Shown piece after piece: positions 765 to 63,125 of a stretch of 64,000 nt of DNA (positions are counted from its first letter, which is position 1; each line of letters begins with the position of its first letter). A program made the position numbers and the translations under genes. The notes below the pieces were generated by a model. The model saw only the letters and a program-made list of their open reading frames with translations, was not told where the DNA came from and did no database searches. Origin of the DNA: Caerostris darwini (lineage: Eukaryota); contig BPLQ01011166.1 in assembly GCA_021605075.1 (NCBI GenBank), forward strand, positions 407,264-471,263, written 5' to 3'.

Positions 765-1789
765 TTAAAATTAATTAAAGTAGATTATATAACTAAAATT
801 AATTCATTTTGGGGTGATTTGTATATCACAACACATTTTTTACAAACTATATGATAAAGAATATAATAGTAGCATTTCTTAACTTCCACAGTACCTTTTT
901 GACAGATGCAATACACTTTTAGAATATTTTATTTGCATAAAATTTTTTTCAAGTATTAATTTCTGTACAGTTTCACTATCATACATTATTTTTTAAAAAT
1001 GTAATAACAATTTTTAATTATTTTTATTTATACTGTCAAAATTTACATAATTATGTAAAAAAGTTATATAGTTTGTTCACAGCATTCAAAATTATTTACT
1101 ATAATTGAATACAATTTTACATTTCTTGTTTCTTACATTTACTGTAAGAAATATGCTTAATGCAAAGAAATTTAATGTGCCAGTTAAAACAATAAAACTA
1201 CAATTCCAGTTTCAAATATGCATTAACTTTATCACTAACTTAATAATTCAACACAATTACTCAAACAATAAAATATTTTCTTTATATAATTTTATATCTT
1301 TTATATCATATACTCTTTATTTTATACATATTTTTTCTAATTTGTTATGAAGGTAATTAAAAGGCAAATAGTGAATTTAACTTTAGGTGAAACTGCATAG
1401 ATTTAACAATTATTTCAATAGTTGCCTTTTAATTTTTGTAACAACAAAGCAAAAAGCTAAATCTAAATTTTCATTAATCAAATGAATGCACTTTTTTTCA
1501 TTTATAACAAAAAATGTTTGTTTGTTATATTTACTAGAACTCAAGAAGGTTTGCTAATTTTAAAGCATCATGTAGCAAAGTTTTATAATTTTAAAATATT
1601 TATTGAGATAAATTTAACTAACAAGTGATATAAAAATTAAAATAAAGAATAGCTAGGTCACCAAAATTAAATGAATAAAGGACATTCTATGTTGCAGTTT
1701 ATGCATTGGTTGCAGCATGGACTGTAGTATATGTATTTTTAATCTACATGATCCAATATTTAAATATTAAGAAACTATAGGAAAAATAC

Positions 1790-3047
1790 CTGGTGGCAAA
1801 CCTTCATCCTTACTGTCATTTTTTGGTGCATCTTCATCACTTACATGGTAATCTGAATAACCACCGTCTGAGTCATAAACATCCTCATCAAAATCAAGAT
1901 GATGTATTCGTTTATAATCTTTTACCATGTAAGAGGGTGGTTTTGAAATTCTTCCTGAACGAGTTCTAGGTCTCTGTTTCTTTTTTTCTTCACGTTCTTC
2001 TTTGGATAAATGAGAATTTCCTTTATCATCATCATCTGTAAGTTTTCTATGGCGTCTTTTTGCTTGAGAAGAATTGGAGGATTTTCTATTGGCATTTGGC
2101 TTTGAAGCAGATTCAATTCTGGGATTATTACCCTGCACTTCAGATGGATGAACAACACGACACACAATTCTTGTTTTAGTGGAAGGATCGTACAGTACAG
2201 ATTTTCCACCATTCTGAATTTTGTTAGTTTTTTGGTTTTGCAAAACATAAGAGATTTGTTGTAATTGAGCTTGGGTTAAAACCTGAGTTGTTTCATATGA
2301 ATCACCTTTATGAGTTATTTGAATTGGATTTTCTACTGATCCCAAAGGTGCATTCGTTTTTTTCGTCAGTAAATTTAAGCTGGTTAAATAACTGTTGCTT
2401 GCTGAAGCTATAGATGATGAAAGAACAGTATCAGTTTGAATTGATGGATTACTAGACGATACAAGATCTTCAGAAATAATTAATGCTTCGCTTCCACCAA
2501 CAGTTTCATCGACATATATGCTTTCATTACAATTGCTATCAACTGAACCAGAATTAAAAGTTAAATTATGGTTATTTAAAAGTATTTGACTATTGTCAGT
2601 TAATATAAGGGGTTTTAAGTCATTATTACATGAATTAGAAATGCTTTTATCAGATTCAATACGGAAGTCTTGCAATTCTAAATTTTTATCAATTTTGTTA
2701 GAAACCACAGAACTATCAACTAGCTTTAAATTTTTGGAAACAATTTGGTCAACGGCTGAATCTAGGTTTAAAGATTTTACATTATGAATATAGGAATGAT
2801 CAGAAAGATGATGAATATTATCCAAAATAGTGCTTGGGGTTTGTATCAAATTATTTTGATCATATTCATCAATTTCATTTACAGTTGACTGCAGTGTACC
2901 AGTAGCTATAATATCTTTATCATTAAAGTGTGTGGGCAATTCCTGTGCAGAAATATTTTCAACAACTGGCACATGTTTATTTATCACAAGTGTTTGTTGT
3001 GAAAGTTCCTCCGCCATGCTAGAAACAGTCATATTACTTGTTGTCAT
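1790..3047 (-). CDS. Large coding exon (419 codons) of a low-complexity Ser/Asn/Asp-rich nuclear-type protein; possibly the first coding exon
   Basis: A 426-aa minus-strand ORF in an otherwise ORF-poor, AT-rich region. A strong donor CCAG|GTATTT sits at 1789-1788, and the last 7 ORF codons are probably intron. The acidic/basic C-terminal patch reads KRRHRKLTDDDDKGNSHLSKEEREEKKKQRPRTRSGRISKPPSYMVKDYKRIHHLDFDEDVYDSDGGYSDYHVSDEDAPK. An in-frame TAG lies directly upstream of the ATG, preceded by a possible acceptor ttttgcag. Confidence 0.5.
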
Positions 3048-5435: not shown

Positions 5436-5839
5436 TTGTTGTTGTTTCTTATCCCACTTGGCTGGCCAAGCCCACGAGCCCATACGTACTCATGATTGAA
5501 GGGGAAGGAAGCAGCTTCTGTTGTGATGGAGCCCACGTAGGTAGAAGTCTGACTTTGGCTCCGTGACGCTCTTACAGTCATAGGAGACCGGGACCTACGG
5601 CTTAAAGTGGATTCCGAACCACTACAACCATCCATGGCTCCGCCGGGATTCGAACCCGAAACCTGTGGCACCGAGCGCCAGAGCGCTAGACACTCGACCA
5701 TTCAGGTCCCAAATTTGTGAATGCCAACGGCACGCGGTATTCCCAAGTGGTCACCCACCCAAGTACTGACCGCGCCCAATGATGCTTGACTTCGGTGATC
5801 TAACGAGAACCGGTATATTCAGCATGGTATGGCCGTTGG
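5436..5839 (-). mobile_element. Composite SINE: 5S-rRNA-like head + tRNA-like module + conserved core + (CAA)n-type tail, flanked by a 12-bp TSD TTTAATAAATAA (5424-5435 / 5840-5851)
   Basis: Near-identical to 10551-10937. Read on the minus strand it goes 5S-like (118 nt), then a tRNA-like segment with GGTTCGAATCC, then the core CCATGGATGTTTGTAGTGGTTCGGAATCCACTTTAAGCCGTAGGTCCCGGTCTCCTATGACTGTAAGAGCGTCACGGAGC. Direct repeats flank the unit. Confidence 0.8.
5722..5839 (-). other. 5S rRNA-like sequence forming the 5' head of the SINE (pol III promoter module; not an independent 5S gene)
   Basis: Reverse complement reads GCCAACGGCCATACCATGCTGAATATACCGGTTCTCGTTAGATCACCGAAGTCAAGCATCATTGGGCGCGGTCAGTACTTGGGTGGGTGACCACTTGGGAATACCGCGTGCCGTTGGC. 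This is collinear with animal 5S rRNA (GCCAACGACCATACCACGCTGAATACATCGG...GGTTAGTACTTAGATGGGAGACCGCCTGGGAATACC...). No T-run terminator lies between it and the tRNA-like part. Confidence 0.75.
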
Positions 5840-6413
5840 TTTAATAAATAAAAAAGGTAAAATGCCATTTTATTAATAAGCCAGTTTAATGTGTAATGCA
5901 ATAAATCTTTTTTCTGGCGTATATCTTCATTATTATTAGAATACAGTTTAATGAAAACTCATTTTTTTTTACTTTTCGTTCAAGCTCTAATCCATCCAAC
6001 AAACTGTACTCTATTACGTCAACAAAATCGATATTTTCAGCTAGACTATTTTCAATTGACAAAATGGCTAAGCTAGAGAGTCGTGCTTGGTTCACAGAGG
6101 ATTTCAGACAATTCTTAATTCGAAAAAAATATCTCTCATGATGCAACAGAAATGCTTAAAGTAAATAAAAAATCTTAAAATTTCTATACAACCTATATAA
6201 TTCCCACGCTCTTGATTACTCAGTATAAATATCCCAGCAGCGGGCAGAAAGTTTTCACATAATGAAAAGCACTAAATGATACTTATTAGCTTTCTTTCAT
6301 ATAAAATGCAATTTTTTTAGAGACATCATGTTTATTTGTGTTTATAATTAGAATTAATATCCATTTTATTTTATTTTTATCCATTTATTACTATCATTTA
6401 CTTATTTTTAATA

Positions 6414-9365: not shown

Positions 9366-9650
9366 AAAGGCCTCGCGAGTGGCTAGCGCTCGGTACCACA
9401 GGTTTCGGATTCGAATCCCGGCTGTGCCATGGATATTTGTAATGGTTCGGAATCCACTTTAAATCGTAGGCCCCGGTCTAACATGATAGTAGTGCGTTGT
9501 GGGGGTATTGTTACTTCGCGTCCGTGGTTTATCTTCAAGCTACACGCATCTCCTTGGTTATGCTAAGTGAGTAACGTTGGTGCAGCGTTTGCCTTAAGGC
9601 ATCAAAGACAACTGTCTAAGTGTTTGCCAGCTGCATTAGAACAAAAAAAT
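9366..9650 (+). mobile_element. tRNA-derived SINE copy (tRNA-like head GGCCTCGCGAGTGGCTAGCGCTCGGTACCACAGGTTTCGGATTCGAATCCCGG + core), A-rich end
   Basis: Shares the core CCATGGATATTTGTAATGGTTCGGAATCCACTTTAAATCGTAGGCCCCGGTCTAACATGA. Imperfect flanking repeats are TTGACAGCAAAG and TTGATAGCAGATAAG. Confidence 0.55.
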
Positions 9651-10550: not shown

Positions 10551-10937
10551 GTTGTTGTTGTTGTTTCTTATCCCACTTGGCTGGCCAAGCCCACATGGAC
10601 TCATGATTGAAGGGGAAGGAAGCAGCTTCTGTTGTGATGGAGCACCCGTAGGTAGAAGCCTGACTTTTGCTCCGTGACGCTCTTACAGTCATAGGAGACC
10701 GGGACCTACGGCTTAAAGTGGATTCCGAACCACTACAAACATCCATGGCACCGCCGGGATTCGAACCCGAAACCTGTGGCACCGAGCGCCAGACACTCGG
10801 CCATTCAGGTCCCAAATTAGCCAACGGCACGCAGTGTTCCCAGGTGGTCACCCACCCAAGTACTGACCGCGCCCAATGATGCTTAACTTCGGTGATCTAA
10901 CGAGAACCGGTATATTCAGCATGGTACGGCCGTTGGC
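10551..10937 (-). mobile_element. Composite 5S-headed SINE, second copy, flanked by a perfect 14-bp TSD TGCTCTGTTGGTAT (10537-10550 / 10938-10951)
   Basis: About 93% identical to 5436-5839 over 5S + tRNA-like + core + (CAA)n tail. The 5S-like part is 10820-10937. The TSD is read directly from the sequence. Confidence 0.85.
10820..10937 (-). other. 5S rRNA-like head of SINE copy 2
   Basis: Reverse complement reads CCAACGGCCGTACCATGCTGAATATACCGGTTCTCGTTAGATCACCGAAGTTAAGCATCATTGGGCGCGGTCAGTACTTGGGTGGGTGACCACCTGGGAACACTGCGTGCCGTTGGC. Confidence 0.75.
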
Positions 10938-12053: not shown

Positions 12054-13233
12054 TTGAAGAAGAATATGCAAATTACAGGAAGCCACCAGATGGCGCGGAT
12101 AATACGTCACAATGACGAGAGTGTAAGAGAGGGGTATAAAAGGAATGGTGGCAAGGAAGTAAAATTGTTCACAAGCGCTTTAAAAGCCTTTCAGTACAAT
12201 AACCGCATAGTTATGGCACAAAGGAAGCATTTGGATGATTTTTTACGTGGTAGAATTATCGGACGACTGGAATGTGGACGTACCCAGCTGGAAGTATCCG
12301 AGGAACTTGGAATCGCCCAGTGTCATCTCCAGGCTTTGGCAACGATTCCAAGATGATGGTAATGTGAGTAAATGTTACAGCACAGGTCCCCCCTCCCCCG
12401 AGTTACAACGCCGAATGAGGACCGGTATTTAGCAGTTACTGCCAAAAGAAACAGACGGAGCACAGCATCAGACCTGTCTCGTCAGCTACCGGTACGACAG
12501 TTTCAAGGCAGACAGTGTACAGACGCTTAGGGCACATTGATCTGTATGCTCGTAGGCCTGTCAGATGTGTTCCACTTACCCGCAACTCACTGTCGCCTGC
12601 GATTAACCTGGAGTAGAGAGCATGCATTGTGTACACCGCAACAGTGGTCTTGTGTGATGTTTTCCGACGAGTCCAGGTAAGTTTGCAGTCTGATTCTCGC
12701 AAGACTTTGATATGGAGAGCGCCAGGTACCCGTTACCACCAAGAGAACACCATTGAACGACACCGTTACGGTGGTGCAGGATGGCTCGTTTGGGGAGGAA
12801 TTATTCTTGGTTCCAGAATTGACCTGCATGTTCAGAGTGTAACGATGACAGGCCACATCTATCGGGATGTCATTCTGGAACAACATGTACGTTTGTTTCG
12901 GGCGCCATGGGTGCTGAATTTCTGTTTATGGATGACAACGCCCGTCCTCACCGTGCAGACATTGTAGATGAATGCCTTCAATTGGAGGATATCACCCGCA
13001 TGGATTGGCCTGCATACTCACCGGACTTGAATCCAATAGAGCATGTGTGGGATATGCTTGGCCGACGAATTGTAGCCCGTCAACCCCCTCCCACCTGTCA
13101 ACCGCAACTTCGGAGGGCATTGCTTGATGAGTGGTGTAATATTCTCCAAGATCAGATTGATAATTTGATACTCAGCATGCCTAGGCGTTGTAAGGCCTGT
13201 ATTGCATCGTCCGGGAGACATACTCTATATTAA
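12054..13233 (+). pseudogene. Tc1-like (DD34E) transposase pseudogene, frameshifted into at least 4 ORF pieces; TIRs not identified
   Basis: Pieces read …LDDFLRGRIIGRLECGRTQLEVSEELGIAQ… (HTH), …WLVWGGIILGSRIDLHVQ…, and …FMDDNARPHRADIVDECLQLEDITRMDWPAYSPDLNPIEHVWDMLGRRI…SMPRRCKACIASSGRHTLY*. The spacing from the second D to E is 34. Confidence 0.8.
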
Positions 13234-14910: not shown

Positions 14911-15140
14911 TACTACTACTACTACTACTACACTACACCGCCTAGAGCTGAGTTGCCAGTTTGGTAATAATGTGGGTGAGAAGTCTGACTGGGCTCCGTG
15001 GCGCTCTTACAGTCATATGAGACTGGGGCTTATGGCTTAAAGTGGATTCCGAACCACTACAAACATCCATGGCATTACAGGGACTCGAACCCGAAGCCTG
15101 TGGCACCGAGCGCTGAACACTCGGCAATTCAGGCTCCGAA
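14911..15140 (-). mobile_element. tRNA-headed SINE of the same subfamily as the 5S-headed copies but without the 5S module; (CTA)n tail
   Basis: Minus strand reads CGGAGCCTGAATTGCCGAGTGTTCAGCGCTCGGTGCCACAGGCTTCGGGTTCGAGTCCCTGTAATGCCATGGATGTTTGTAGTGGTTCGGAATCCACTTTAAGCCATAAGCCCCAGTCTCATATGACTGTAAGAGCGCCACGGAGCCCAGTCAGACTTCT… followed by a (TAG)n tail. Confidence 0.7.
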
Positions 15141-15491: not shown

Positions 15492-16658
15492 CTATTCAAG
15501 GTGGGAAAATTTTTCTTCTTTTAGTTGGGGGCTTTCTAGATGTCGTTTTTCTTCTGGGCATCGTTCTCGATTCGGACCTTTTCCTTTTCTGCGCTGGCTT
15601 AACACAGGAATCTTGTGCCCGCTTTCTTCTCCGAACACTTGATTTTGGGTTCGCTTTGGACGCCTCACGTATCTCAAGTTTCCTTTGCGATATGCAGCGA
15701 CATCAGAAGTAGCCTTCATCAGAGCGTGCTCTTTGAGCAGATACGAAAATGCTCTTAAAACAGCCTGTGTCAGCTCTTCGTCACCCATGTCAGTTTTTTT
15801 TATCTGGCATATTTCTGCAGCAATCTCTGCCAGATGCTCAGCGATCTCGATTAAAAGGAGTCCCAGGTACTTTGGAGGCTTCGAGTCGATGTGGGACAAC
15901 GGATCCACTTCTGAAAAAAGCCTCTTGATGGAAGAGGTGAAACATTCCGCGAATTCCGGTTTAGAAAAACCATCACTCCACAAACTCCTTTTCTTCAGTT
16001 TTAAATCGAGTAAGCTGTTTTCGTATAAAGCTAAATACCTATTCGCTTCGTTGACAGCTGCATTGAAAACGTTCTTTTCAAAATATTGGGGTAAAATGTT
16101 TTTTAAATCCAGAGGTCGGAGCTCTTCGTTTTGACCATAAGTTCCAGCTGCTTTGGCGGTTATTGCCTTTCCGAATTGATATATATATAAAGCTAACGTA
16201 TCCCTGGCTTTTCTGTCAAATATTAAATTCTGTAGGCATTTGGAGCTCAGGTTTGCAACTCCGGATTTGAAAGGGTTAGTGTTTCTTCTAATATCAACAT
16301 CTTGGCGGATTTCTTTTTTCTTTGCTTTCACTTTTAATGCACCATTGCCGCCATACGTCATACAACCACTCTGTAATAAAGCTAATTGCTTAAAAGCTTC
16401 TGATAAAGCGTGCCTTTTCAAACCTCCTTCAAAATATGTGCCAATTACTTTATGAGCGATAAGTTGTATGGTGTGTCCATTCATTCTATTCACAGCATTA
16501 TATTCTTCTTCAATGCGAGTTATTATTGTTGAATTTACTTGGTTCAGCAACTTTGAAAGTAGTTCAAGGAAATTGTTTTCTACTTTTAAAGCCAAGGCCT
16601 GATCACTAATTAAATTCTCTAGGCCTGTTTTGTAACTAATATCTTTGGTGTAAACCAT
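15492..16658 (-). CDS. Intact intronless 388-aa ORF of unknown family, with a basic C-terminal tail (…YRKGNLRYVRRPKRTQNQVFGEESGHKIPVLSQRRKGKGPNRER…)
   Basis: The longest ORF in a 60-kb TE-rich interval. I recognise no DDE, RT, zinc-knuckle or YR motif and no splice signals inside. Codon usage is less AT-skewed than the neighbouring DNA. Confidence 0.5.
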   Translation of the reverse strand: MVYTKDISYKTGLENLISDQALALKVENNFLELLSKLLNQVNSTIITRIEEEYNAVNRMNGHTIQLIAHKVIGTYFEGGLKRHALSEAFKQLALLQSGCMTYGGNGALKVKAKKKEIRQDVDIRRNTNPFKSGVANLSSKCLQNLIFDRKARDTLALYIYQFGKAITAKAAGTYGQNEELRPLDLKNILPQYFEKNVFNAAVNEANRYLALYENSLLDLKLKKRSLWSDGFSKPEFAECFTSSIKRLFSEVDPLSHIDSKPPKYLGLLLIEIAEHLAEIAAEICQIKKTDMGDEELTQAVLRAFSYLLKEHALMKATSDVAAYRKGNLRYVRRPKRTQNQVFGEESGHKIPVLSQRRKGKGPNRERCPEEKRHLESPQLKEEKFSHLE

Positions 16659-17482: not shown

Positions 17483-17646
17483 GGTTTTGTTTGGTTTGTT
17501 GCTCTGCGGTCATTTTTTGCACACTCTGGACTAATTATTCCGGGACCTACAAGTTAACGTGGATTTCGAACCACCAACAAACATCCATACCACCGTCAGG
17601 ATTTGAATCTGAAGCCTGTGGCACCAATTGGCCATCAGGCAGCCAG
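17483..17646 (-). mobile_element. tRNA-derived SINE copy (core + tRNA-like head GCTGGCTGCCTGATGGCCAATTGGTGCCACAGGCTTCAGATTCAAATCC)
   Basis: Core and tail are shared with 19178-19345 and 62718-62900. Confidence 0.6.
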
Positions 17647-17884: not shown

Positions 17885-18530
17885 TATGTATAGTAGCCAA
17901 GCATACATTTTTCAACATCCGAGCAAGCATTACAGCATATGACCCAACTAAGTCCATTTTTACAAAAATAAACCTGAATAACATTAAATATATTATTTCA
18001 TGTGCATCTTTTAATGATAGGATAGCATGATATAATATTTTATCCAGCACATTTTTTTTTCTTCAATGGTGCAACAGCCTCATGGTAGATTAAGGCCATC
18101 TGCCTACTGGCAGATTTCGGGATAGGAGATGTCAGTACTTACGTATTAACGCCACCGCAGCTACAGATTTGGCGGTTTTTAAGTGGCGCCAATCTACACT
18201 TAAAAATTTTGTGACAAATCATAAAATATATAAAACACTTTATTTAAAAACAAAGTAGTCAATCGGATTTCGGTGGAAAATGTTCCGATATAGAGTTTAA
18301 AAATAGATTCAAAACAGTTTTTATTTTGGCGCATTGGTAGCTCTTTATTGGCGCATTAGCGCAACTTCTGCTGCGGTGGCGTTAATACGTAAGTACCGAG
18401 ATGTTTTTTTACGGATAAGGTTGTCAGCCCTACGTTCAACAGTCATATCAGACCGAGACCTACGGTTTAAAATAAATTCCGAACCACTACAAGCATCCAT
18501 GGCACCACTGGGACCCGAATCCGACACGTG
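17885..18530 (-). mobile_element. Long SINE copy (about 400-bp body) with a head truncation, interrupted by a nested MITE at 18133-18398
   Basis: Collinear with 18655-19044 (…catcttttaatgataggatagca…ggtgcaacagcctcatggt…gatttcgggata…) when the 266-bp insertion is removed. Confidence 0.6.
18133..18398. mobile_element. Nested 266-bp MITE with 27-bp TIRs (C)AGTACTTACGTATTAACGCCACCGCAGC, flanked by a (G)AGATGT duplication
   Basis: The left end reads cagtacttacgtattaacgccaccgcagc and the right end reads gctgcggtggcgttaatacgtaagtaccg. The flanking SINE sequence is continuous in the sister copy 18880-18920. Confidence 0.6.
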
Positions 18531-18654: not shown

Positions 18655-19044
18655 TAGATTTTTCAACATCCATGCAAGCTTTACAGCAAATAATCTAACT
18701 AACTCCTTTTTCACACAAATAAACCACAAAAAAGTATTAAATGTATTCTCTCATATGCATCTTTTAATGATAGGATAGCACAATATAATATTTCCATCTA
18801 GCAAATTTTTTTTCTTCTTCATTGGTGCAACAGCCTCATGGTGGACTAAAGCCATCCCGCCTACTGGTAGATTTCGGGATATGAGATGTTTCCTTTTTAT
18901 GGGTTGGATTGTGAGCCCTACATTCAACAGTCATATTAGATCGGAACCTACGGTTTAAAGAGGATTCCGAACCACTAGAAGCATCCATGGACTCGAATCC
19001 GAAAAATATGGCACCAAGTGCTAGTCGCTCGGCCATCAGGCCCC
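18655..19044 (-). mobile_element. Long SINE copy with tRNA-like head GGGGCCTGATGGCCGAGCGACTAGCACTTGGTGCC…GGATTCGAGTCC
   Basis: Core GGATTCCGAACCACTAGAAGCATCCATGG is on the plus strand; the body matches 17885-18530. Confidence 0.65.
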
Positions 19045-19177: not shown

Positions 19178-19345
19178 TTTGGTTTGTCTCTCCACGGTCA
19201 TTTTGTGCACACTTTAGGTCAATTAGACAGGGTCCTACAGTTAAATGTGGATTCCAAACCACTAACAAACATACATGCCACTGCCAGGACTCGAACCTGA
19301 AACCTGTAGTACCAAAGGCCAGAGCGCAGCCAATTGGCCATCAGG
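19178..19345 (-). mobile_element. tRNA-derived SINE copy
   Basis: Minus strand reads GCCTGATGGCCAATTGGCTGCGCTCTGGCCTTTGGTACTACAGGTTTCAGGTTCGAGTCCTGGCAGTGGCATGTATGTTTGTTAGTGGTTTGGAATCCACATTTAACTGTAGGACCCTGTCTAATTGACC. Confidence 0.7.
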
Positions 19346-19753
19346 CAATTTAAATTACTGTAGATTCAATGTCGTAGATATGTTCTCCGAGAAATTATAT
19401 TTTATTTAAATTAGAATACTGTACATTTTTCTGGCATGGTCTTACTGAACAGCTGGTCATGACAGTACAGCTTCTTCAATATAAGATCTCAAATGTTAAG
19501 CTATTGTGGGATTTTTACCGCTTTTAGCAATACGATAATTTTTTCTGTACAATGCTTCAACGCCCATTGTGTGCAGATATTACAAAATAATATAAGATTT
19601 GGGCACTTTGATAATCACTAAAAAAACTAGCGTTTTATGTTTATAAATTTTAATCTTTAAATGGCCTATTAATAGAGATGTTTCTTGGAACCTTTGGACA
19701 AAATTTCCACACAAACAACTGACAACGTTTTCATCTCGTGTTATTGAAAATCC

Positions 19754-19915
19754 GGGCCTGATGGCTAAGTGGCTAGCGCTCTGCTCTAGCGCACAGGTTT
19801 TGAGTTCAAGTCCCGGCAGTGCTATGGGTGTTTGTTGTGGCTCGGAATCTACTTTAAATCGTAGGTCCCGGTCTAATATGACTGTAGAGCGTTGGGTGAC
19901 CAACCTTAAACAGTA
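19754..19915 (+). mobile_element. tRNA-derived SINE copy (plus orientation); forms an inverted pair with 19178-19345
   Basis: GGGCCTGATGGCTAAGTGGCTAGCGCTCTG…GTTTTGAGTTCAAGTCCCGGCAGTGCTATGGGTGTTTGTTGTGGCTCGGAATCTACTTTAAATCGTAGGTCCCGGTCTAATATGACTG. Confidence 0.7.
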
Positions 19916-48350: not shown

Positions 48351-49571
48351 TTGTGGGACATTATAAGTGATGATAATAGAACAAAATATACCGCTGCTAA
48401 AACACGATTGCTGAATACTTTTAAAGAAAGCGAAAATAAGCGTCTTCAGAGACTGCTGACAGGACTTGACTTGGGAGATCTTAAACCTAGTCAACTTTTA
48501 CAAAAAATGAGAAATCTGGCTACTGATGGAATTACTGACAAGATACTAACAACATTATTTCTACAAAAAATGCCTGATTCTGTAAGGAATATTTTACTAG
48601 TCAGTGATGAAAAAATTGAAAAACTGGCATTAATGGCGGATCGTATTCTTGAAATGCAACCAAAACAAGAACTTTACCGCGTAAGCAATGTTTCATCAGG
48701 ATCAGATGCCATGACTGAGTTACAACAACAAATTACATCTTTGGAAAATAAACTTGAAAAACTGAGTGTCACAAGGAACTCTCGTTCCCAAACAACAAAT
48801 AGAGGTCGATACTCTTCTTCTCATCGAAGTCAGTCTCGCAATCACTCTTATAATCCTTCAGGCAAATACTGTTATTACCATTTCCGTTTTCGAGAAAAAT
48901 GTTTTCCTGATAAATGCAAAGCTCCATGTGCATGGCAAAAACAATCCTTCGGAAAATCAGAATCAGCAACAGAATTAACGGCAGACTCTGCTGCTGAAAA
49001 TACAAAACATTGCCGTCAATACCGTCTATTTGTCAACGACAAAAAAACGGGTTTACGCTTTTTGGTTGATAGTGGAGCGGACGTAAGTCTTATTCCTTAT
49101 ACTTCTAAACACAAATTTATTAGTGACTATAAATTATATGCTGCAAATAATACTGCAATCGATACTTTTGGTACAGAAATTTTAAATCTTGATCTAGGTT
49201 TACGCCGAGAATTTCAATTCCCATTTATTGTGGCCAAAATTAGTAAACCTATACTAGGTGCAGATTTTTTAAATAAGTTCAATTTATTAATTGATATAAA
49301 GCATAAAAGATTAATTGATGGTGTAACTAACCTTGCAGTTTATGGTAACATTGCACCCATCTCTATTAATGAAAGTGTAAATACAACGAGCAGCTTATGT
49401 AAATATTCTGATTTATTTTCTATGTATCCCAATATAACAAAACCAAATTTTCTTGTTTCAAATGTTAAACATAATGTAAAACATCATATTATAACTAAAG
49501 GACAACCTATAAATTGTAAAGCAAGACAATTAGATCCAAAACGGTTGGAAATAGCTAAAAAGAGAATTTAA
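48351..49571 (+). CDS. gag-protease polyprotein (406 aa): Cys/His knuckle CYYHFRFREKCFPDKCKAPC, aspartic protease LVDSGADVS
   Basis: Intact ORF. The D-S-G-A protease motif is read directly. The C-terminus …HHIITKGQPINCKARQLDPKRLEIAKK runs on, after a +1 shift, into RT (EFKYMLDNNIISPSSSEWASP…). Confidence 0.85.
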   Translation: MWDIISDDNRTKYTAAKTRLLNTFKESENKRLQRLLTGLDLGDLKPSQLLQKMRNLATDGITDKILTTLFLQKMPDSVRNILLVSDEKIEKLALMADRILEMQPKQELYRVSNVSSGSDAMTELQQQITSLENKLEKLSVTRNSRSQTTNRGRYSSSHRSQSRNHSYNPSGKYCYYHFRFREKCFPDKCKAPCAWQKQSFGKSESATELTADSAAENTKHCRQYRLFVNDKKTGLRFLVDSGADVSLIPYTSKHKFISDYKLYAANNTAIDTFGTEILNLDLGLRREFQFPFIVAKISKPILGADFLNKFNLLIDIKHKRLIDGVTNLAVYGNIAPISINESVNTTSSLCKYSDLFSMYPNITKPNFLVSNVKHNVKHHIITKGQPINCKARQLDPKRLEIAKKRI

Positions 49572-49575
49572 ATAT

Positions 49576-50973
49576 ATGCTAGACAATAACATTATTAGTC
49601 CATCTAGCTCAGAATGGGCAAGTCCATTACATATAGTAACAAAGAAAGATGGTTCTTTTCGTCCATGTGGTGATTATAGAAGATTGAATGATTTAACTAT
49701 ACCTGATAGATATAACATACCTCGAATCCAGGATTTTCAACATATTTTAACTAATAAAACTATATTTTCTAAAATTGACATTACTAAAGCATATTATCAC
49801 ATTCCTGTAGCAGATGAAGATAAGGCAAAAACTGCCATCATCACACCTTTTGGACTTTATCAATTCAATGTGATGAGTTTTGGTCTCAAAAATGCCCCTG
49901 CAACATTTCAAAGGTTTATAAATGAAGTTCTTTATGGTCTAGACTTTGTGTTTCCATACTTAGATGATGTGTTGATCGCCTCTTCTTGCGAGGAAGAACA
50001 TCGTTCACATCTTAAAATAGTTTTCCAGCGTTTAGATAAATATGGTCTACGGATTAATATTAGCAAATCAGTTTTGGGAGTACCTGTAATAGATTTTTAG
50101 GCTATCAAATATCTGCGGAAGGTTCACTACCTCAACCTCAAAAGATCAAAGCTATCATAGAATATCCATTGCCAGAAACTATGCACGAATTACGTTCCTT
50201 CTTAGGAATGATCAATTTTTATCGTAATTATATAAATAATGCCGCAAAAACTCAAGCCCCTCTACATGAACTTTTGAAAGGATCTACAAAAAAAAGATCG
50301 ACGCAAAATACCATGGACCGATGAAACTAGACAAAGTTTTGAAAAATGCAAACAAGATGTTGCTCAAATAGCGTTAATGGCATATCCCAACTCGGATTAC
50401 CCTCTGGCACTTCTCACAGATGCATCTGATTGGGCTATTGGATCAGTTATTCAACAAAAAGAACCAAATGGATGGAAGCCAATTGCATTTTTCTAAAAAA
50501 CTTAATGATGCTCAGAAAAATTACAGCGTTTATGACCGTGAACTTTTGGGTATATATTTATCCATTAAACATTTTAAGCATTTACTTGAAGGTCGAGATT
50601 TTGATATTTATACTGATCATAAACCGTTAATATTTGCTTTTAAGCAAAACAATGATAAAGCCTCCCCAGACAACTCAGACATCTACAATATATCTCACAA
50701 TTCTCTACTAACCTATACCATATCAGTGGTCGAAACAATGTGGTAGCAGACAGACTGTCTAGAATTGAGGACATCGATTCACCTATTGTCGATTATGACT
50801 TGATAGCTGATGCACAAATTAATGATGATGAACTGCAACAATTGAAATTACATTCCAAATCATTACATTTTAAAGAACACCAATTGCCATCAGGAAAGCT
50901 CTTGTATTGTGATACCTCTACTTCCAGTATCAGACCATTCATACCAAAAAAATTTTCGAATGACAATATTTAA
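49576..50973 (+). pseudogene. pol RT-RNaseH region, recognisable but split over 5 frames by frameshifts located in homopolymer runs
   Basis: RT reads …FSKIDITKAYYHIPV…TPFGLYQFNVMSFGLKNAPATFQRF…YLDDVLIAS…GVPVIDF|LGYQISAEG…RSFLGMINFYRNYI… and RH reads …LTDASDWAIGSVIQQ…PIAFF|SKKLNDAQKNYSVYDRELLGIYLSIKHFKHLLEGRDFDIYTDHKPL…DKAS|PRQLRHLQYISQFSTNLYHISGRNNVVADRLSRIE…. Shifts fall at T5 (about 50095), A8 (about 50285), T5/A6 (about 50485), C5 (about 50660) and A7T4 (about 50945). Confidence 0.8.
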
Positions 50974-52111
50974 TACAATTCACAGTTTATCTCATTCTGG
51001 AATTCGAACTACTGTAAAAGAAATAACTAAAAGATTCATTTGGCCAAATATGAAAAAAGATGTTAAACAGTGGACTCAAACTTGCATCAACTGTCAGAAA
51101 AATAAAATAACTAAACATACAAAATCAGAATATTCACAATTTCAAGCACCAGATGAGAGATTTAGTGTCGTTCATATAGATTTAATTGGACCTTATTCAC
51201 CTTCTAATGGATACACATACTGCTTGACGTGTATTGATCGGTTTACCTCTTGGATGGAAGTGGTACCGTTATCAAATATCACTGCAGAAAGTATAGCAAA
51301 AGCTTTTTATGAGCATTGGATTACCCGATTTGGTGTACCTACTTGTGTTATTACTGACAAAGGCACTCAATTTATTTCAGAACTATTTCGAAGTTTAGCT
51401 GCGCTATGTGGTGTTAAAGTAAACCATACGTGTTCTTACCATCCTCAGAGTAATGGAAAAGTTGAACGTCTTCACCGTACCTTGAAAACAGCTATTAGAT
51501 GTCATAACAACGTTCGTTGGACGGACACATTACCAACGGTTCTTATGGGTTTGCGAGCTGCTCTACATGAGGACTCTAAGTATACAATAGCTGAAATGGT
51601 TTATGGCAAAACTATTAAACTACCAGGCGAATTCTTTGAAGAATCCAGATTGCCAATATCTGATGATAATTTCGTAAGTAATCTCAGAAAACAGATGGCT
51701 GACTTAAAACCATACCAATCCAAAAACAAATGTAAACAAAAGATCTTCATTCCAAAAGATTTGTACACATGCTCACATGTGTTTCTGCGAATTGACAGAG
51801 TCAAAAAACCATTAGAACCCCCATATGAAGGACCCTATTTGGTATTGCAAAGATCCCCGAAAAACTTTCTTCTATCAATTAAAAATAAACAAGTTAATAT
51901 TTCAGTGGATAGATTAAAACCGGCATATGTGTTACAACCTAATGAACTTCTGAATCCAACATTATCAAATGATCATACATCTCTGCCGAGTGAACAAACA
52001 TTTATACCAAGTCAGCAAGTTGCACAACCAAATACAACAACACGTTGTGGAAGACAAGTAAAACTTCCTGTTCGTTTCAATGACATTATTGACTTTTCTT
52101 CAAATTTATAA
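50909..52111 (+). CDS. Integrase (HHCC zinc finger + DDE core), intact from the shift point
   Basis: HSLSHSGIRTT…CINCQKNK; D in HIDLIGP, D in CVITDKGTQF, E in SNGKVERLHRTLK; GPYSPSNGYTYCLTCIDRFTSWMEVVPL and SYHPQSNGKVER are typical gypsy integrase strings. Confidence 0.85.
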   Translation: MIPLLPVSDHSYQKNFRMTIFNTIHSLSHSGIRTTVKEITKRFIWPNMKKDVKQWTQTCINCQKNKITKHTKSEYSQFQAPDERFSVVHIDLIGPYSPSNGYTYCLTCIDRFTSWMEVVPLSNITAESIAKAFYEHWITRFGVPTCVITDKGTQFISELFRSLAALCGVKVNHTCSYHPQSNGKVERLHRTLKTAIRCHNNVRWTDTLPTVLMGLRAALHEDSKYTIAEMVYGKTIKLPGEFFEESRLPISDDNFVSNLRKQMADLKPYQSKNKCKQKIFIPKDLYTCSHVFLRIDRVKKPLEPPYEGPYLVLQRSPKNFLLSIKNKQVNISVDRLKPAYVLQPNELLNPTLSNDHTSLPSEQTFIPSQQVAQPNTTTRCGRQVKLPVRFNDIIDFSSNL

Positions 52112-53123: not shown

Positions 53124-55503
53124 TTATCCTGGGTCGAAGTTAATTCTTTTCGCTGTTGGAAAAGAGATGAACATAGCGTTATTAATGGCACGGGGCCTTT
53201 TCTTTGCTTTCGGGTGTTTGTAATCGTAGATGGGTAAATTATTGATGAGCGGATTGTTAGATCTATTGGTGTTGTTAATGAAATCGGTTGCGATTCGCTT
53301 AGAGTAGTCCAGGATAGATTCTAGGTTGAGATTTTTGTGGAGAAATTCTCTGCTGAGGTGAAAAGGAGCGTTTGTAATTTTGAGCAATTGTTGATTTTGG
53401 AAAACCTGCAATTTCCGTAAAGTGGAGATGGGTGAGGAGATCCAAACAGGAGCCGCATAGGTGATAATGGGTCTGATGATGGAAGTATATAGAGTGAGTT
53501 TACTTCTGATAGATAATTTACTAGTGAAGTTGATCAGTGGGTTGATTTGGTGGCTGGCAATATTTGCCTTTCTGATAGTATCCTTTAGGTGAGGATTAAA
53601 ATTTAGTTTCGATTCTAGAATGACCCCAAGGTACTTGTATTCATTTACAAACGGTACTGGTTCGTTGAAGATCTTGAGCTGTGGTGGGTTTGATCGTCGT
53701 TTTTGACGAGAGAAAATTAGGCAGGCACACTTTGAGGCATTGACCTTCACTTTCCATCGTGAGAGCCATGTCTCCAGGTGTCCTATGTAATTTTGCAGAT
53801 TAGTAATGATCTCAATGTTATCCTTGCTTCGAGTAATAATGGCGGTATCATCCGCGTACATGGCCATCTGAGTATTGGTCGTGCGTGGGAAATCGTTGAC
53901 ATAAAGGTTGAAGAGTAATGGTGATAGAAGTGAACCCTGCGGGAGGCCGCTGGCGATTGCTCGTGGTGTTGATGTTTGGTTGTTTACCTTCACTTTGAAG
54001 TTCCGGTGTGAGAGAAAAGAGTTAATTAAGAGTGCAATAGGTGCTGGAAAGTCGAGTTGCATGAGTTTGAAAATTAGACCGGTATGCCAAATCTTATCGA
54101 ACGCTTTCGCGATGTCTAAGAAGAGTATACCAGTATTAATTTTCTTGGAAAAACCGTCGTGTATAAGTTCAGAAACTCTGAAAAGTTGGTGTGTAGTGCT
54201 GAGTGATTTCCTGAAGCCAAATTGCTCAGGAATTATGATGTTGTTTTGGGTGCAGAAATTATTAATACGTAATAAAATGGCGTGTTCATAGATTTTACTG
54301 ATGCTGCTAAGTAATGAAATAGGTCTATAGTTTTGTGGCCGATTTATATCTGTACCACATTTGTGTATGGGTGTTATTGTGGCTGTCTTCCAGCAGCTAG
54401 GAAAATGGTAGAAGCTAAGAAAGTGATTTAAAATGATGTTTAGCCATATGATGTATTTAAATGGAAGATGCATGATCATGGCTTTGTTTATGTTGTCTTC
54501 ACCCGGAGCTTTTTTAATTTTTAGTGAGTGTATAAATTCGAATGTCTCCGAGGCGGTGATAGCATTAATGTAATTTACATGAGGTTCGTGTAGATAATGA
54601 TGAGCAGCAGAAATGATTAACGAGTTGGTGGAGACGTGGTTGTCTGTTAAGTTGGGAGAAAATTGAGCTTGCCAGCAGTCTGCAATTAATTCGGCTTTTT
54701 CTTCTGGAGAGATTACCGTTGATCCATTATCAGATATTAGTGGGGGAATCTGAGTGTTGTTTTTACGGAGTGCTGAAACTTTCCTCCAGAGTGAGGTGCT
54801 ATTACTAGAGAAATCATTGGTGATGTTGGCCCAGCTATTGCTTTTGGGCAGATTTATTTTCTTCTTGATGATGTTGTTTAATTTATTGATGCAATTTTTG
54901 AGAGCCGGATCTTTAGATCTTTGCCAGGCTTTCCTGATCTTATTTCTGTTTTTGATGATCGTTTTGATTTCCTTTGGAATCTTTTTCCCCGGATGGTCAA
55001 AGTTTCTTTTGGAGCTTTTGTCTAGAGCTTCTAGCATAGTGTTTGTGAGGTTATTTAGTGCGTGTTCCGCATCGTGGGCTGAGTTTATTTTGCTGATAGG
55101 AGGCATGGAGTGTTGAAGTGTGTAACTGTAGTTGTGCCAGTTTGTGGTTTTACGTTGGGTGGAAGTAGCAAGATTACTATTGAGATTTAAGGTAATAATG
55201 ACTGGCATGTGGTCAGAGTTTAACTCGTGTATCACTTCCATGGAGCTGCTATATGGGATGTTTCTAAGAAGTGCGAAGTCTATGGTGGTGTTCCCATACC
55301 GGGCCTGAGGGCTGAAATGGGTGGGGGTGTGTGGTGCAATTATTTTTATATCATTCCTGGAGTTAAAGAATTTATTGAATTTAATTCCACGTAGGGTGTG
55401 TTTTGTATTGTTCCAGGATGTGTGTGAGGCGTTAAAATCTCCTGCGAGAATGGTGTTTTTATTTGCCTCAATTAATTTCTTTAGACAGGAGTATGAAAAT
55501 ATT
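53124..55503 (-). mobile_element. Non-LTR retrotransposon (APE-endonuclease LINE) ORF2, 793 codons open, 5'-truncated inside the endonuclease domain; the 3' UTR probably continues toward about 52517, where the LTR element is inserted
   Basis: EN C-terminal half reads …ILAGDFNASHTSWN…SDHMPVII. RT reads …PGEDNI…FDKIWHTGLIFKL…LPQGSLLSPLLFNLYVND…MYADDTAII…YLGVILESKL…. The frame is open from 55503 (preceded by TGA) to the stop at 53124. No RNase H or CCHC motif was seen. Confidence 0.8.
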
Positions 55504-56284: not shown

Positions 56285-58150
56285 TCTGTTTTTTCTTCCT
56301 TATATTAAAACTTTAATTTCTGATCGCAATCGTGCTCATAAATTACAGCAGTTTCTTCAAGATTCTCCCTGAAAAATATAATTACAAAGAGCTCAAGCGA
56401 TACTTAAGCTCGGCATCCGAAAAAGACTTCTGGACTGAATTGCAAAATCTCGATTCGGAGGATAGCTCTCTTTGGAAAGAGATTAATAGATTCAAACGCA
56501 AAGCTACTAAAGTTCATATTCGGAAAGATCCAAATACTATTCCTCTAATTCTGCCATCACTGGCACTCAAAACGCTACGCCTAGCCTACCACCACCTGCC
56601 TTCGGGACCTGCTTCAACTTTCTAATCTTCATATTGACGGGTCAGCTCAGTCCTCCATCACTAACCTGGCCTTTGGTACCACAGGCTTCAGGTTCGAATC
56701 TTGCCGTTGACATGGATGTTTGTAAGTGGTACGGAATTGACGTTAAACTGTAGGTCCTGGTCTAATTAGCCTAAAGTGAGCAAAAAAGGACAGTAGAACG
56801 ACAAACCAAGCCTCCATTACTAAATTATTTGAAACGTCTCATAAACAATAAACATTAGCTCCTCTTTAATTCATGAATACATTCGAAAAAGTTCAAATTA
56901 AACTAGCTGCAGTCATTGACTGCATCACTAATAAAATGTTTAATAATTTAACTTTCAAAATAATTGTTCGTATTTCTCTTTTTATTATCAATTCCAATAT
57001 CACCCTTTCATATTTTATTTAAACATGAAAAACAGCAATTATTCTTTCCATTATGAAGACAAAAAAAAATCCTTCTAACGCCAATAACTACTGGTCTATC
57101 CACTCACACCAAAATTGCTGAATTGTCAACAAAATTAACTCATATCATTACTTCTAACTTTATAATCCCTTAATAATGTAGATTCATTACTAATCTCTTT
57201 GACAAAAACCACTAACTCTCTCTAATCACCAACTTCTTAATCACTTGAACTAATCTCTGAAGGACTCGGGAATAAATCTATCATGATAAATGTATCTTTT
57301 CTTCGCGTGTGGATCGAATGGCTCATCTTTAGATTAATCTACTTTAAATTTCACATCCGTCTTCTTCGGTTAATTTTTTCCTATATTTCCAATATATAAC
57401 ATTAACAAAATCCGTAACTCTTTCTTTCTTTTTAAAGTCAATATTCCACAAAGCTCAACTATTGAACCCATTTTCTTCAAATTTCAAATCAATAAGGTAC
57501 ATTTATGTTCTATGCTGATGATCTTTCTATTGCTGTCCAGTCCAATAGTATTCGTCTCTTACTAATTAACCTTGAAACTTGGTTTGTCAGGTGGAAATTC
57601 CTTCTTAATGCTGATAAAACTGAAGATGCTCTTTTTACTTAAAAAGTCATTCTTCTGTTACGTTATTTACGATTATTTGATCAAACGAGGTCAAATGCCT
57701 GGGTGTAATTCTTGATAAAAGACTAACTTTATATTATGTTAACTATAGGAAGAAAAAAAATTGATTTTTATGTTTGCACCTAATATGCACCATTAATTGA
57801 GATTTCTTCTTCTCTGTTGAAAATGAACTACTAATCTATATGTACTATAGACGTCGCATTATCACATATGCTTCCAGGTTTGGAGTCCAGCTGCAAAAAT
57901 TAGAATTAATTGTATTCAAATGTTAAAAATAAAATTCTTCATATGATCACTAACGCACCAGGGTTCTTTAGAAATGATGACAACCGTAATTCTCTAAATC
58001 TTCCCAGTATCAAAATGTTTATTTTTAAATTTTCCACCAATTTGCTTATAAAACTTGACTTTTCTAATTTAGTAAAATCCTCCACAACTGCGATCACACC
58101 CTGACCTCCAACTCCAAAAGCTCAAAATATTTTATCCCAGATTTCTTGTC
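56285..58150 (+). pseudogene. Second, degenerate copy of the same LINE family (plus orientation), with a SINE fragment inserted at 56665-56785
   Basis: 56332-56625 reads …DFWTELQNLDSEDSSLWKEINRFK… (compare LINE A …DFSSNSTSLWRKVSALRKNN…). 57500-58110 reads …FYADDLSIAV…LETWFVRWKFLLNADKTE…, with frameshifts and stops. Confidence 0.6.
56665..56785 (+). mobile_element. Partial tRNA-derived SINE (5'-truncated head) inside LINE copy B
   Basis: ACCACAGGCTTCAGGTTCGAATCTTGCCGTTGACATGGATGTTTGTAAGTGGTACGGAATTGACGTTAAACTGTAGGTCCTGGTCTAATTAGCC. Confidence 0.6.
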
Positions 58151-60785: not shown

Positions 60786-61457
60786 GAATGTAAAAACAGT
60801 TATTTATTAAACATAAATTTTAGGGATACTAAGATTTATGCAGTTTCGATAAAACATGTGTAACATTAATAGAAAATGTGTTTTGTTATAGAAACTGGGT
60901 GTTTCTAATTCGTATCTTCTCGGTTCTTTTTTTGATGTTGCTATAAATGTGTTGTGTCCTTTATATAGTATGTGTTTTATTACATAATAAATTTTCGTTA
61001 AAGACAACTCTAAAAATGGCTACTGAATATTTTTACTAAATTTAGTATCGGACTAATTGGTAACAGTCATATTTGATCAAATTATTTTCCCTCAAATTAA
61101 TTTAAAACAATTTTTATTCTATTAAAATATTTTTACATGGACATTTAGAAGGGTTTATGTGTAAAAACATATTCTTAAAATTTGTGCTTTTTTACAAAAG
61201 CTTAATTTTTAAATGTGAATAAAAAGACATGAAAATCTAAAAATGAAAAAAAATGCATACACAATAATAGAAACATAAATATGGATAAAAGAAAAATAAA
61301 TGGTGCCCAATAAATATCCCAATCACGCATGAGTGATAAAAGAGTTGGGAACTGAATTGTAAGTGTAAAATCTTAATATACAATAAAATAGTATACATTA
61401 AATTGATAAATTCAGATAGTAATTTATAATTCCTACTGCGGTATATATATATATATA

Positions 61458-62675
61458 CACTGAAGTGACAAAAGTCATGGGATAGCAATATGCAAATTTT
61501 CAGATGGCAGTAGCATCGCGTAGAACGGGTATAAATGCGCAGTGCTTTCGCAGAGCTTTCATTTCTGTTCAAGTTATTCATGTGAAGAGGTTTTGACGTG
61601 ATCATGACCGCACGACGGGAATTAACAGACTTGGAACGCGGAATGTTAGTTGGAGCTAGACGCGTGGGTCATGCCATTTCGGAAATCGTTAGGGAATTCA
61701 ACATTCCCAGATCCACTGTGTCAAGAGTGTGCCGAGGGTATGAAATTTCAGGCATAACATCCCACCATGGACAGCGCAGGGGTCGACCGCCTGCACTTAA
61801 CGACCGAGACCGGCGACGTCTGCAAAGAGTCGTAAATTCTAACAGACAAGCAACACTGCGTCAAATAACCGCAGAAATCAATGTGGGACGTACAAGGGAC
61901 TTGTCTGTTAGAACTGTGCGGAGAAATTTGGCTTTCTTGGGCTATTCCAGCAGAAGACTGACTCGAGTGCCTTTACTGACAGAACGACATCGCTTGCAGC
62001 GACTCTCGTGGGCACGTGAGCATATCGGTTGGTCCCTAGATGAATGGAAAACCGTGGCCTGGTCCGATGAGTCACGATTTCAGTTGGTAAGAGCTGATGG
62101 TAGGGTTCGAGTGTGGCGCAGACCCCACGAAGCCATGGACCCAAACTGTCAGCAAGGCACTGTTCAAGCTGGTGGTGGCTCCGTAATGGTGTGGGCTGTT
62201 TTTTCAGGGCATGGACTTGGTCCTCTGGTGCGACTGGACCGAACATTGACTGGAAATGCTTATGTTCAGCTACTTGGAGATCACTTGCAGCCATTCATGG
62301 ACTTCATGTACCCAAACAACGATGGGATTTTTATGGATGACAATGCGCCATGTCACCGGGCCACAACTGTTCGCGATTGGTTTGAAGAACATTCTGGACA
62401 ATTCCAACGAATGATCTGGCCACCTAGATCGCCCGACATGAATCCCATCGAGCATTTATGGGACATCATCGAGAGGTCTGTTCGTGCCCAAAATCCTGCA
62501 CCATCAACGCTTTCACAATTATGGACGTCTATCGAGACAGCATGGCTCAATATTCCTGCAGAAGACTTCCAACGACTTGTTGAGGCCTTGCCACTTCGAG
62601 TTGCTGCACTTCGCCGGGCGAAAGGAGGGCCGACACGATATTAAGAGGTATCCCATGACTTTTGTCACTTCAGTG
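61458..62675 (+). mobile_element. Complete Tc1-like DNA transposon (1218 bp): perfect 27-bp TIRs CACTGAAGTGACAAAAGTCATGGGATA, TA TSD inside a (TA)n microsatellite, TATAAAT box at 61530-36
   Basis: 5' TIR 61458-61484 and 3' TIR 62649-62675 are exact reverse complements. TA flanks both ends. Confidence 0.9.
61598..62644 (+). CDS. Tc1-family DDE transposase, 348 aa, uninterrupted
   Basis: HTH reads …LTDLERGMLVGARRVGHAISEIVREFNIPRSTVSRV…. Catalytic residues: D in WSDESRF, D in FMDDNAPCH, E in SPDMNPIEHLWD (36 residues between the second D and E by my count, against 34 in the pseudogene at 12054). GGGSVMVWA and …LPLRVAALRRAKGGPTRY* are also present. Confidence 0.9.
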   Translation: MIMTARRELTDLERGMLVGARRVGHAISEIVREFNIPRSTVSRVCRGYEISGITSHHGQRRGRPPALNDRDRRRLQRVVNSNRQATLRQITAEINVGRTRDLSVRTVRRNLAFLGYSSRRLTRVPLLTERHRLQRLSWAREHIGWSLDEWKTVAWSDESRFQLVRADGRVRVWRRPHEAMDPNCQQGTVQAGGGSVMVWAVFSGHGLGPLVRLDRTLTGNAYVQLLGDHLQPFMDFMYPNNDGIFMDDNAPCHRATTVRDWFEEHSGQFQRMIWPPRSPDMNPIEHLWDIIERSVRAQNPAPSTLSQLWTSIETAWLNIPAEDFQRLVEALPLRVAALRRAKGGPTRY

Positions 62676-62717
62676 TATATATATATATATATAGTTGGAT
62701 ATTATTCCATATAATTA

Positions 62718-62900
62718 TTTCTGTGGGCTTGATTTGTAGCTCTACGGCCATTTCGCACACACGTTAGGCTAATTAGACTGGGACCTGTAGTTTAACGTGG
62801 ATTCCAAACCACTCACAAACATGCATGCCATTGACAGGATTCGAACCTGAAGTCTGTGGTACCAAAGACCGGAGAGCTAGCAAATTGGCCATCAGGCCCC
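62718..62900 (-). mobile_element. tRNA-derived SINE copy (minus), left member of a head-to-head inverted SINE pair
   Basis: Minus strand reads GGGGCCTGATGGCCAATTTGCTAGCTCTCCGGTCTTTGGTACCACAGACTTCAGGTTCGAATCCTGTCAATGGCATGCATGTTTGTGAGTGGTTTGGAATCCACGTTAAACTACAGGTCCCAGTCTAATTAGCC. Confidence 0.7.
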
Positions 62901-62979
62901 TGTCTGTTTGGAGAAGATTGATATGATGGAATTACAAGGAATAGTAAAATCAAAGTTATTAAAAATCCCCCTCGTTGTG

Positions 62980-63125
62980 GACTTGAATGGCCAATTGGCT
63001 AGCGCTCTGACGCTCGGTACCACAGATTTCAGGTTCGAGTCCCGACGGTGCCATTGATGTTTGTAATGGTTCGGAATCCACTTTAAACCATAGGTCCCGG
63101 TCTAACATGATCGTGGTGAGTGACG
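62980..63125 (+). mobile_element. tRNA-derived SINE copy (plus), right member of the inverted pair
   Basis: GGACTTGAATGGCCAATTGGCTAGCGCTCTGACGCTCGGTACCACAGATTTCAGGTTCGAGTCCCGACGGTGCCATTGATGTTTGTAATGGTTCGGAATCCACTTTAAACCATAGGTCCCGGTCTAACATGA. Confidence 0.7.

Follow-up and report, generated by a model that had tools for sequence, protein, structure and literature searches.

We analysed a window of 64,000 nucleotides (64 kb) from the spider Caerostris darwini (contig BPLQ01011166.1, forward-strand positions 407,264 to 471,263; all positions below are counted from the first letter of the window). Near its right end lies a transposon, which we identify with high confidence as a full-length DD36E/Incomer (IC) element of the Tc1/mariner superfamily, of the sub-lineage that was first found in the stick insect Clitarchus hookeri, inserted at a TA within a (TA)n tract of an araneoid spider genome. 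The IC family was described by Sang et al. 2019 (Mob DNA 10:45; PMC6875036) and is defined by a length of ~1.2 kb, one open reading frame (ORF) of ~346 aa, terminal inverted repeats (TIRs) of 22–32 bp, a TA duplication and a conserved 36-residue spacing; published arachnid and insect ICs range from 1217 to 1226 bp and from 346 to 382 aa (PMC6875036). The window element is 1218 bp long, with an ORF of 346 aa, 27-bp TIRs, a spacing of 36 and a bipartite helix-turn-helix (HTH) domain with a GRPR-type motif. The spacing class itself is not new, as DD36E elements have been catalogued in insects and arachnids, intact copies included, since 2019. Our reading of this copy is that of a young insertion that has probably drifted neutrally since it landed.

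The element spans 61458–62675 (1218 bp, or 1222 bp counting both TA dinucleotides). Its parts and immediate borders are as follows.

61442–61457, unstranded: left (TA)8 microsatellite; its last TA (61456–61457) is taken nominally as the left target-site duplicate
61458–61484, plus strand: left TIR, 27 bp, CACTGAAGTGACAAAAGTCATGGGATA; perfect inverted match to 62649–62675
61485–61603, plus strand: 5' untranslated region, carrying a TATAAAT motif at 61530–61536
61604–62644, plus strand: transposase gene, 346 codons plus TAA; the single long ORF of the element
Residues 1 to ~115 of the transposase: DNA-binding domain, paired-like, two HTH units, with an RGRP (GRPR-like) linker at residues 59–62
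About residue 150 to 346 of the transposase: DDE catalytic domain
62066–62068, plus strand: codon of D155, the first catalytic D, in WSDESRF; a nearly invariant column, aligned with the first D of all reference families
62339–62341, plus strand: codon of D246, the second catalytic D, in FMDDNAPCH; an invariant column, aligned with the second D of the Sleeping Beauty (SB) and IC references
62396–62401, plus strand: codons of G265-Q266, the two extra residues that give DD36E instead of DD34E; opposite a gap in SB100X (HMMER)
62450–62452, plus strand: codon of E283, the catalytic E, in NPIEHLW; an invariant column
62649–62675, minus strand: right TIR, 27 bp, the exact reverse complement of the left TIR; starts 4 nt past the stop codon
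62676–62693, unstranded: right (TA)9 microsatellite; its first TA (62676–62677) is taken nominally as the right target-site duplicate

The first-pass annotation of this DNA had reported perfect 27-bp TIRs, and complementarity of the two ends was indeed 100% over 27 bp, beginning with CACTG as in the insect ICs of Table S1 (PMC6875036). The pattern CACTGAAGTGACAAAAGTCATGGGATA gave two matches in the window even when three mismatches were allowed, compared with 0 expected by chance, and it matched the terminus of the Clitarchus hookeri IC at 25 of 27 positions. Every related copy (L002–L011) that contained the left end had an identical 27-bp left TIR, even though whole elements were merely 82–97% identical. 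These copies had precisely the same boundaries, with TA immediately beyond the TIRs, and many of the contigs terminated right at the TA plus TIR.

The frame was unbroken from 61598 to 62644. It had been reported as a 348-aa transposase, a length that includes a GTG start; the likely protein is the 346 aa from the ATG two codons on (61604), which is the start used by all close relatives and gives the canonical length of the family. The HTH, the GGGSVMVWA motif and the three catalytic acids that had been named were all present, together with FMDDNAPCH and NPIEHLW, and RRGRPP was read directly at residues 58–63. Pfam domains DDE_3 (5e-15) and HTH_Tnp_Tc3_2 (1e-13) exceeded their curated cut-offs, with weaker matches to HTH_32, HTH_28 and HTH_23. 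By sequence match, the transposase aligned with the catalytic domain of SB100X (5cr4; E 2e-39) and with the DNA-binding domain of Tc3 (1u78; 6e-5). An AlphaFold model built with 32 homologues (mean predicted local distance difference test score, pLDDT, 84.6) contained six N-terminal helices (residues 9–111), a disordered RGRP linker and an RNase-H-like domain; its top structural matches were the Sleeping Beauty and Mos1 transposases, with a template modelling (TM) score of 0.82 to 5cr4 on target length.

The catalytic spacing was then read from the alignments. Ninety residues separate D155 from D246 and 36 separate D246 from E283, and the count of 36 was confirmed by three independent alignments. 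In the HMMER alignment to SB100X 5cr4, the sole gap was a two-residue insertion within the D246–E283 interval, opposite G265-Q266. When MAFFT was used to align it with published references, whose DDE domains were taken from the supplement alignment of the family-defining paper (PMC6875036), each reference came out at its nominal spacing (34, 35, 36, 37 or 41) and the window element at 36. Among the best 120 database homologues, 92 of the 105 in which the second D and the E were both aligned had a spacing of 36. No indel elsewhere restores a count of 34, as the only SB100X gap sits inside the D-to-E interval and the reference alignment agrees. In the structural model, G265-Q266 falls in a loop (263–267) between a helix (254–262) and a strand (268–271); because this loop is predicted to lie at the surface, the two residues would change the count without displacing the catalytic residues. 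The earlier description of a less common spacing class holds in that DD36E is narrowly distributed, but it is no discovery, since the class already bears the name DD36E/Incomer (PMC6875036).

Identities in the reference alignment placed the element within the family. The window DDE domain was 90% identical to that of the C. hookeri IC, 72–74% to the Machilis and Cryptotermes ICs, 48–57% to fish, frog, bat and published spider ICs, and no more than 36% to the DD34E, DD34D, DD37D, DD37E, DD41D and IS630 references. A neighbour-joining tree (200 bootstraps) was computed with 12 published IC and 14 other-family references from the paper's alignment, a set that leaves out Traveler (DD35E) and Intruder (DD38E). 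In this tree the window element fell inside the IC clade (94% bootstrap) and its insect cluster (94%), adjoining C. hookeri (88%). At the nucleotide level, the 400 nt at the 5' end, untranslated leader included, were 87% identical to the C. hookeri IC, and the 400 nt at the 3' end 91.5%.

Two proteins listed at NCBI as "transposase [Salmonella enterica]" (P0045 and P0055) were 49–51% identical to the window transposase, had DD36E spacing and came from contigs of ~1.4–1.5 kb. They probably represent eukaryotic contamination in bacterial assemblies, because IC is reported to be absent from prokaryotes.

The insertion site is a TA tract bordered by GGAATTCCTACTGCGG and GTTGGATATTATTCC. Two related copies (L007, L009) showed the arrangement TA, element, TA in flanks other than (TA)n. 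The proposal that (TA)n is the preferred target is plausible, as insertion into (TA)n was also seen in three other copies of the same subfamily, two in L005 and one in L008. The two copies in L005 (ENA ERZ19025673 scaffold_23146, 53–1270 and 1281–2498) were 100% identical and lay tail-to-tail in one (TA)n with (TA)5 between them; this pair could be a genuine double microsatellite insertion or an assembly artefact. Inside the element, the TATAAAT motif was kept in L001, L002 and the Clitarchus consensus and was absent from L003. We infer that 61485–61603, with this motif, is the element's own putative promoter region.

To judge the state of the copy we compared its substitutions with those of its closest relatives. 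The nearest sister, the P0171 variant, was represented by six 1218-bp copies with 100% identity among themselves and 97.3% to the window element; they had differing flanks and came from five contigs of different samples, with two copies on one contig. Judging by these copies, the P0171 lineage has clearly moved very recently somewhere. The exact window protein, in either its 346-aa or its 348-aa version, matched no contig in the public collection. With substitutions polarised by the more distant copy L002, and "private" defined against copies from other samples, the window copy had 14 private substitutions (1.1%), at these positions.

61527 and 61549, both in the 5' untranslated region
61633, 61664, 61737, 61780, 61901, 61959, 62207
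62585, 62588, 62595, 62604, 62620

Changes in the coding sequence were distributed between the two branches as follows.

Window branch: 1 synonymous, 11 non-synonymous
Sister (P0171) branch: 10 synonymous, 3 non-synonymous

These counts differed significantly (Fisher p = 0.001). The window ratio was compatible with neutrality (p = 0.17) and incompatible with the purifying selection of the family, for which ω (the ratio of non-synonymous to synonymous rates) was about 0.2–0.5 (p = 0.0009). The replacements included F10L, P119L, W202G and S328A/M329L/R331L, at columns that were conserved among 65–119 homologues (F10 94%, P119 83%, W202 89%, S328 92%, M329 84%, R331 78%), and 10 of the 11 were found in none of 18 close relatives. 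The open frame is weak evidence of activity, because the chance of a frame with this sequence staying open after 12 random substitutions was ~0.57. We concluded that the copy has probably decayed neutrally after insertion, because its ratio of 11 non-synonymous to 1 synonymous change contrasted with 3 to 10 in its sister. That is, of the earlier description as "very recent or still-active", a fairly recent insertion, an open frame and perfect ends remained, and the wording was too strong for a copy with this many private and mostly non-synonymous substitutions. It is doubtful, though distinctly possible, that the window copy's own protein still works. Because its ends are perfect, the copy could certainly still serve as a substrate for transposase supplied in trans.

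A different account is that the copy is fully autonomous and presently active, its replacements being tolerated, or adaptive, in a host-specific active subfamily. The open ORF, intact triad and perfect TIRs, a private divergence of only 1.1% and the evident mobility of close relatives, with six identical copies at differing sites, would all fit such a copy, as would the fact that active SB100X also differs at some of the replaced residues. We consider it unlikely, since the 11:1 ratio is what neutral drift gives and differs from the sister's 3:10 (p = 0.001), the replaced residues are 78–94% conserved and almost all of the replacements are unseen in close relatives, and an open frame is expected by chance in 57% of cases.

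Several points weigh against the reading of a DD36E/Incomer copy that inserted in the (TA)n tract and has since drifted. The first-pass annotation named a TA duplication; TA does adjoin both ends of the element, which is what integration of a Tc1/mariner element demands, but within (TA)8 and (TA)9 a true duplication at this locus is indistinguishable from the microsatellite. The element is the only IC copy in the 64-kb window, as judged by tblastn, blastn and the TIR search with three mismatches; the same searches found no miniature inverted-repeat transposable element (MITE) derivatives in the window, and nothing beyond this element and an unrelated DD34E pseudogene. The tree is a simple neighbour-joining tree on 153 residues. 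Some of the private substitutions may belong to a host-specific subfamily. Lastly, some of the replaced sites vary outside IC, SB100X carrying A in place of W202 and L in place of F10, so the window copy may not have lost its activity.

As far as its sequence can tell, the element belongs to an insect-type IC lineage that is resident in a spider, because published spider ICs have other TIRs (CACAGTCCAGTCACATTAATGTGACCA) and DDE domains only 48–53% identical to that of the window element. IC is rare in invertebrates, with four insect and nine arachnid species recorded, some with intact copies (PMC6875036), and this particular cluster has not been described before in the spiders' host class. In Stegodyphus mimosarum and Caerostris darwini, fragments belonging to the same lineage carry the annotation "Tc1/Tcb2 transposase", those of Caerostris being 95–98% identical to the window protein. 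The guanine-cytosine (GC) content of the element was 49.5%, compared with 31% in its flanks. Horizontal transfer probably brought the lineage into spiders, because nucleotide identity to the stick-insect IC is ~90%, non-coding parts included, and because of this difference in GC content. Horizontal transfers of IC have been documented mainly for vertebrates (PMC6875036), and transfer into spiders would agree with the behaviour of IC in general as reported there. No match to the 21-mer GACAAAAGTCATGGGATAGCA, which spans the inner TIR, was found in viral contigs, and thus no viral vector is indicated; none was found in JGI metagenome contigs either. We give an even chance to a more specific history, namely a recent transfer of a Clitarchus-type IC between insects and spiders, for example by a prey-predator route, with the element perhaps still transposing in araneoids or their associates and preferring (TA)n.

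The same difference in GC content might suggest an assembly or contamination artefact, or a transposase gene domesticated by the host, and IC-like contaminants are known in unrelated assemblies, such as the 1.4–1.5 kb "Salmonella" contigs. Such an origin is very improbable here: the element has both TIRs and lies precisely between the halves of one (TA)n tract, on a long contig of spider DNA, alongside other spider repeats and a spider gene, and fragments of its subfamily are annotated in two spider genomes. A domesticated gene would be expected to have lost its TIRs and to be under purifying selection, the opposite of what was seen.

Least credible of all, and hardly worth entertaining, is an ordinary DD34E Tc1 in which misidentified catalytic residues or an indel elsewhere produced the count of 36: IC is the sister group of DD34E/Tc1 with all motifs common to both, and one homologue inside the IC clade (P0034) does have a spacing of 34, but the sole gap against SB, the one facing G265-Q266, falls between the second D and the E, the D and E columns do not vary, every family comes out at its nominal spacing in the reference alignment, and the window element groups with the DD36E references rather than Passport, Frog Prince, Quetzal or SB. 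An alignment artefact was likewise ruled out by the SB100X and reference-set alignments. Membership of DD34E/Tc1 was rejected on the spacing of 36, the identity of 30–36% to DD34E references and a position outside their clade, and membership of DD37E/TRT on the spacing and an identity of 20–22% to mosquito DD37E references, which form a distant branch. P0034 itself nests in the IC clade beside Rhinella/Xenopus-type ICs, yet has 34 residues from D to E; this is either a secondary two-residue deletion or a gene-model artefact. Spacing alone is an unsafe family marker, because a value of 34 occurs inside the IC clade.

By homology to Sleeping Beauty, Tc3 and Mos1, the 346-aa transposase would bind the 27-bp TIRs through its bipartite HTH domain and pair both ends. 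The metal-binding site of the RNase-H-like domain (D155/D246/E283) would then excise the element, which would insert at a TA dinucleotide that is subsequently duplicated. In the history that we favour, the IC lineage would have entered spiders horizontally, and in some genomes it would still be mobile or have been so until recently; the window copy would have inserted fairly recently and then drifted neutrally, acquiring ~11 private replacements while its ends and frame were kept.

The remainder of the window contains a spider gene and many repeats. At 1767–3047 (minus strand) lies a 426-aa open exon of a spider gene with a DUF4764 domain, whose homologues in Araneidae and Nephila are annotated as C2H2 zinc-finger proteins. 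Its best matches were in Araneidae (Larinioides, Araneus; 66%) and Nephila (63%), followed by Stegodyphus (47%), which places the host among the araneoid spiders. The second Tc1-like element is a pseudogene.

12054–13233, plus strand: Tc1-like DD34E pseudogene with several frameshifts and stops; Pfam DDE_3; FMDDNARPH ... NPIEHVW

The pseudogene has 34 residues from D to E and is 38% identical to the IC transposase in the C-terminal part. The earlier count of 34, and the claim that the two elements belong to different lineages, were both upheld, because the spacings differ (34 vs 36) and identity is 38%.

At least 12 copies of a short interspersed repeat of ~120–170 bp, which resembles a short interspersed element (SINE) and whose copies are 70–87% identical, are scattered over the 64 kb, in these places.

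62729–62897 and 62979–63105: inverted pair to the right of the element
About 5585–5710, 9383–9497, 10696–10812, 15013–15129 and 17491–17627: other copies
About 18443–18519, 18931–18990, 19179–19346, 19754–19881 and 56668–56812: other copies

The repeat looks like transfer RNA (tRNA) by eye (GGTTCGAATCC-type motif); ARAGORN, applied to the tRNA-like stretch on the element's right side, called none. Full-length matches to 5S ribosomal RNA (rRNA) lie at 5722–5840 and 10819–10937 (both minus strand; Rfam 102 bits each), with 112 of 119 positions identical. Each lies within a ~400-bp repeat (5436–5839 and 10555–10936; 91% identical to each other) whose non-5S part is the window-wide SINE-like repeat, and these loci are either 5S genes with an adjacent SINE or a 5S-derived SINE. 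Between SINE-like repeats, a 388-aa ORF at 15492–16658 (minus strand) had no Pfam match and may derive from either a host gene or a transposable element. Fragments of the pol gene of a long terminal repeat (LTR) retrotransposon (RVT_1, Integrase_H2C2 and rve) occur at 48351–52111 (plus strand), preceded by a 406-aa gag-like ORF with no Pfam match, and a 705-aa reverse-transcriptase ORF of the non-LTR type occurs at 53124–55241 (minus strand). The region is densely packed with a mosaic of transposable elements.

By itself the window copy matters little, being ordinary for its family. What it adds is an insect-type IC in a spider at ~90% nucleotide identity to a stick-insect element, a cross-class case within arthropods. 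If the more specific history suggested above, with recent insect-spider transfer and continuing transposition, is right, spiders would be the second arthropod class invaded by the Clitarchus-type cluster, and the P0171 variant would represent a DD36E transposase active in nature and hence a candidate tool for gene transfer. As a candidate for an active DD36E transposase, the P0171 variant is better than the window copy. The comparison of synonymous and non-synonymous changes also indicates that an unbroken ORF and perfect TIRs are insufficient to call a copy active.

The closest known system is the C. hookeri IC (TMIC01), for which 1223 bp, 346 aa, TIRs of 27/27, TA/TA and about 3956 copies are recorded (PMC6875036, Table S1). 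The window element shares its 346-aa transposase, DD36E spacing, 27-bp TIRs, TA at the ends and length of ~1.22 kb. It differs in host (a spider rather than an insect) and is 8–13% diverged in sequence; C. hookeri and all others have ESMPRR, whereas the window copy has EALPLR. The published arachnid ICs (Stegodyphus mimosarum, Latrodectus hesperus, Parasteatoda tepidariorum, Nephila clavipes and scorpions) share with it the DD36E spacing, the length of ~1.22 kb, TIRs of 25–30 bp, TA and the host class. Their termini are different (CACAGTCCAGTCACATTAATGTGACCA), their DDE domains are 48–53% identical to that of the window element, and they form a separate branch of the IC clade.

More distant are the DD34E/Tc1 elements (Sleeping Beauty, Tc1, Tc3, Passport, Frog Prince), which have the same paired-like DNA-binding domain, GRPR-type linker and RNase-H-like DDE domain, and by analogy presumably the same TA target and cut-and-paste mechanism. 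They differ in spacing (34 vs 36), DDE identity (30–36%) and clade. SB-type elements have long inverted repeat/direct repeat (IR/DR) ends of ~230 bp; the window element instead has simple 27-bp TIRs. IC is sister to DD34E/Tc1, absent from prokaryotes and common in ray-finned fish (PMC6875036). DD35E/Traveler, DD37E/TRT and DD38E/Intruder (PMC7093834, PMC7731502) are further Tc1/mariner families of rare spacing, with a D-D-E triad and spacings of 35, 37 and 38; the window element resembles them in having that triad with a spacing other than 34, and differs from each in having 36.

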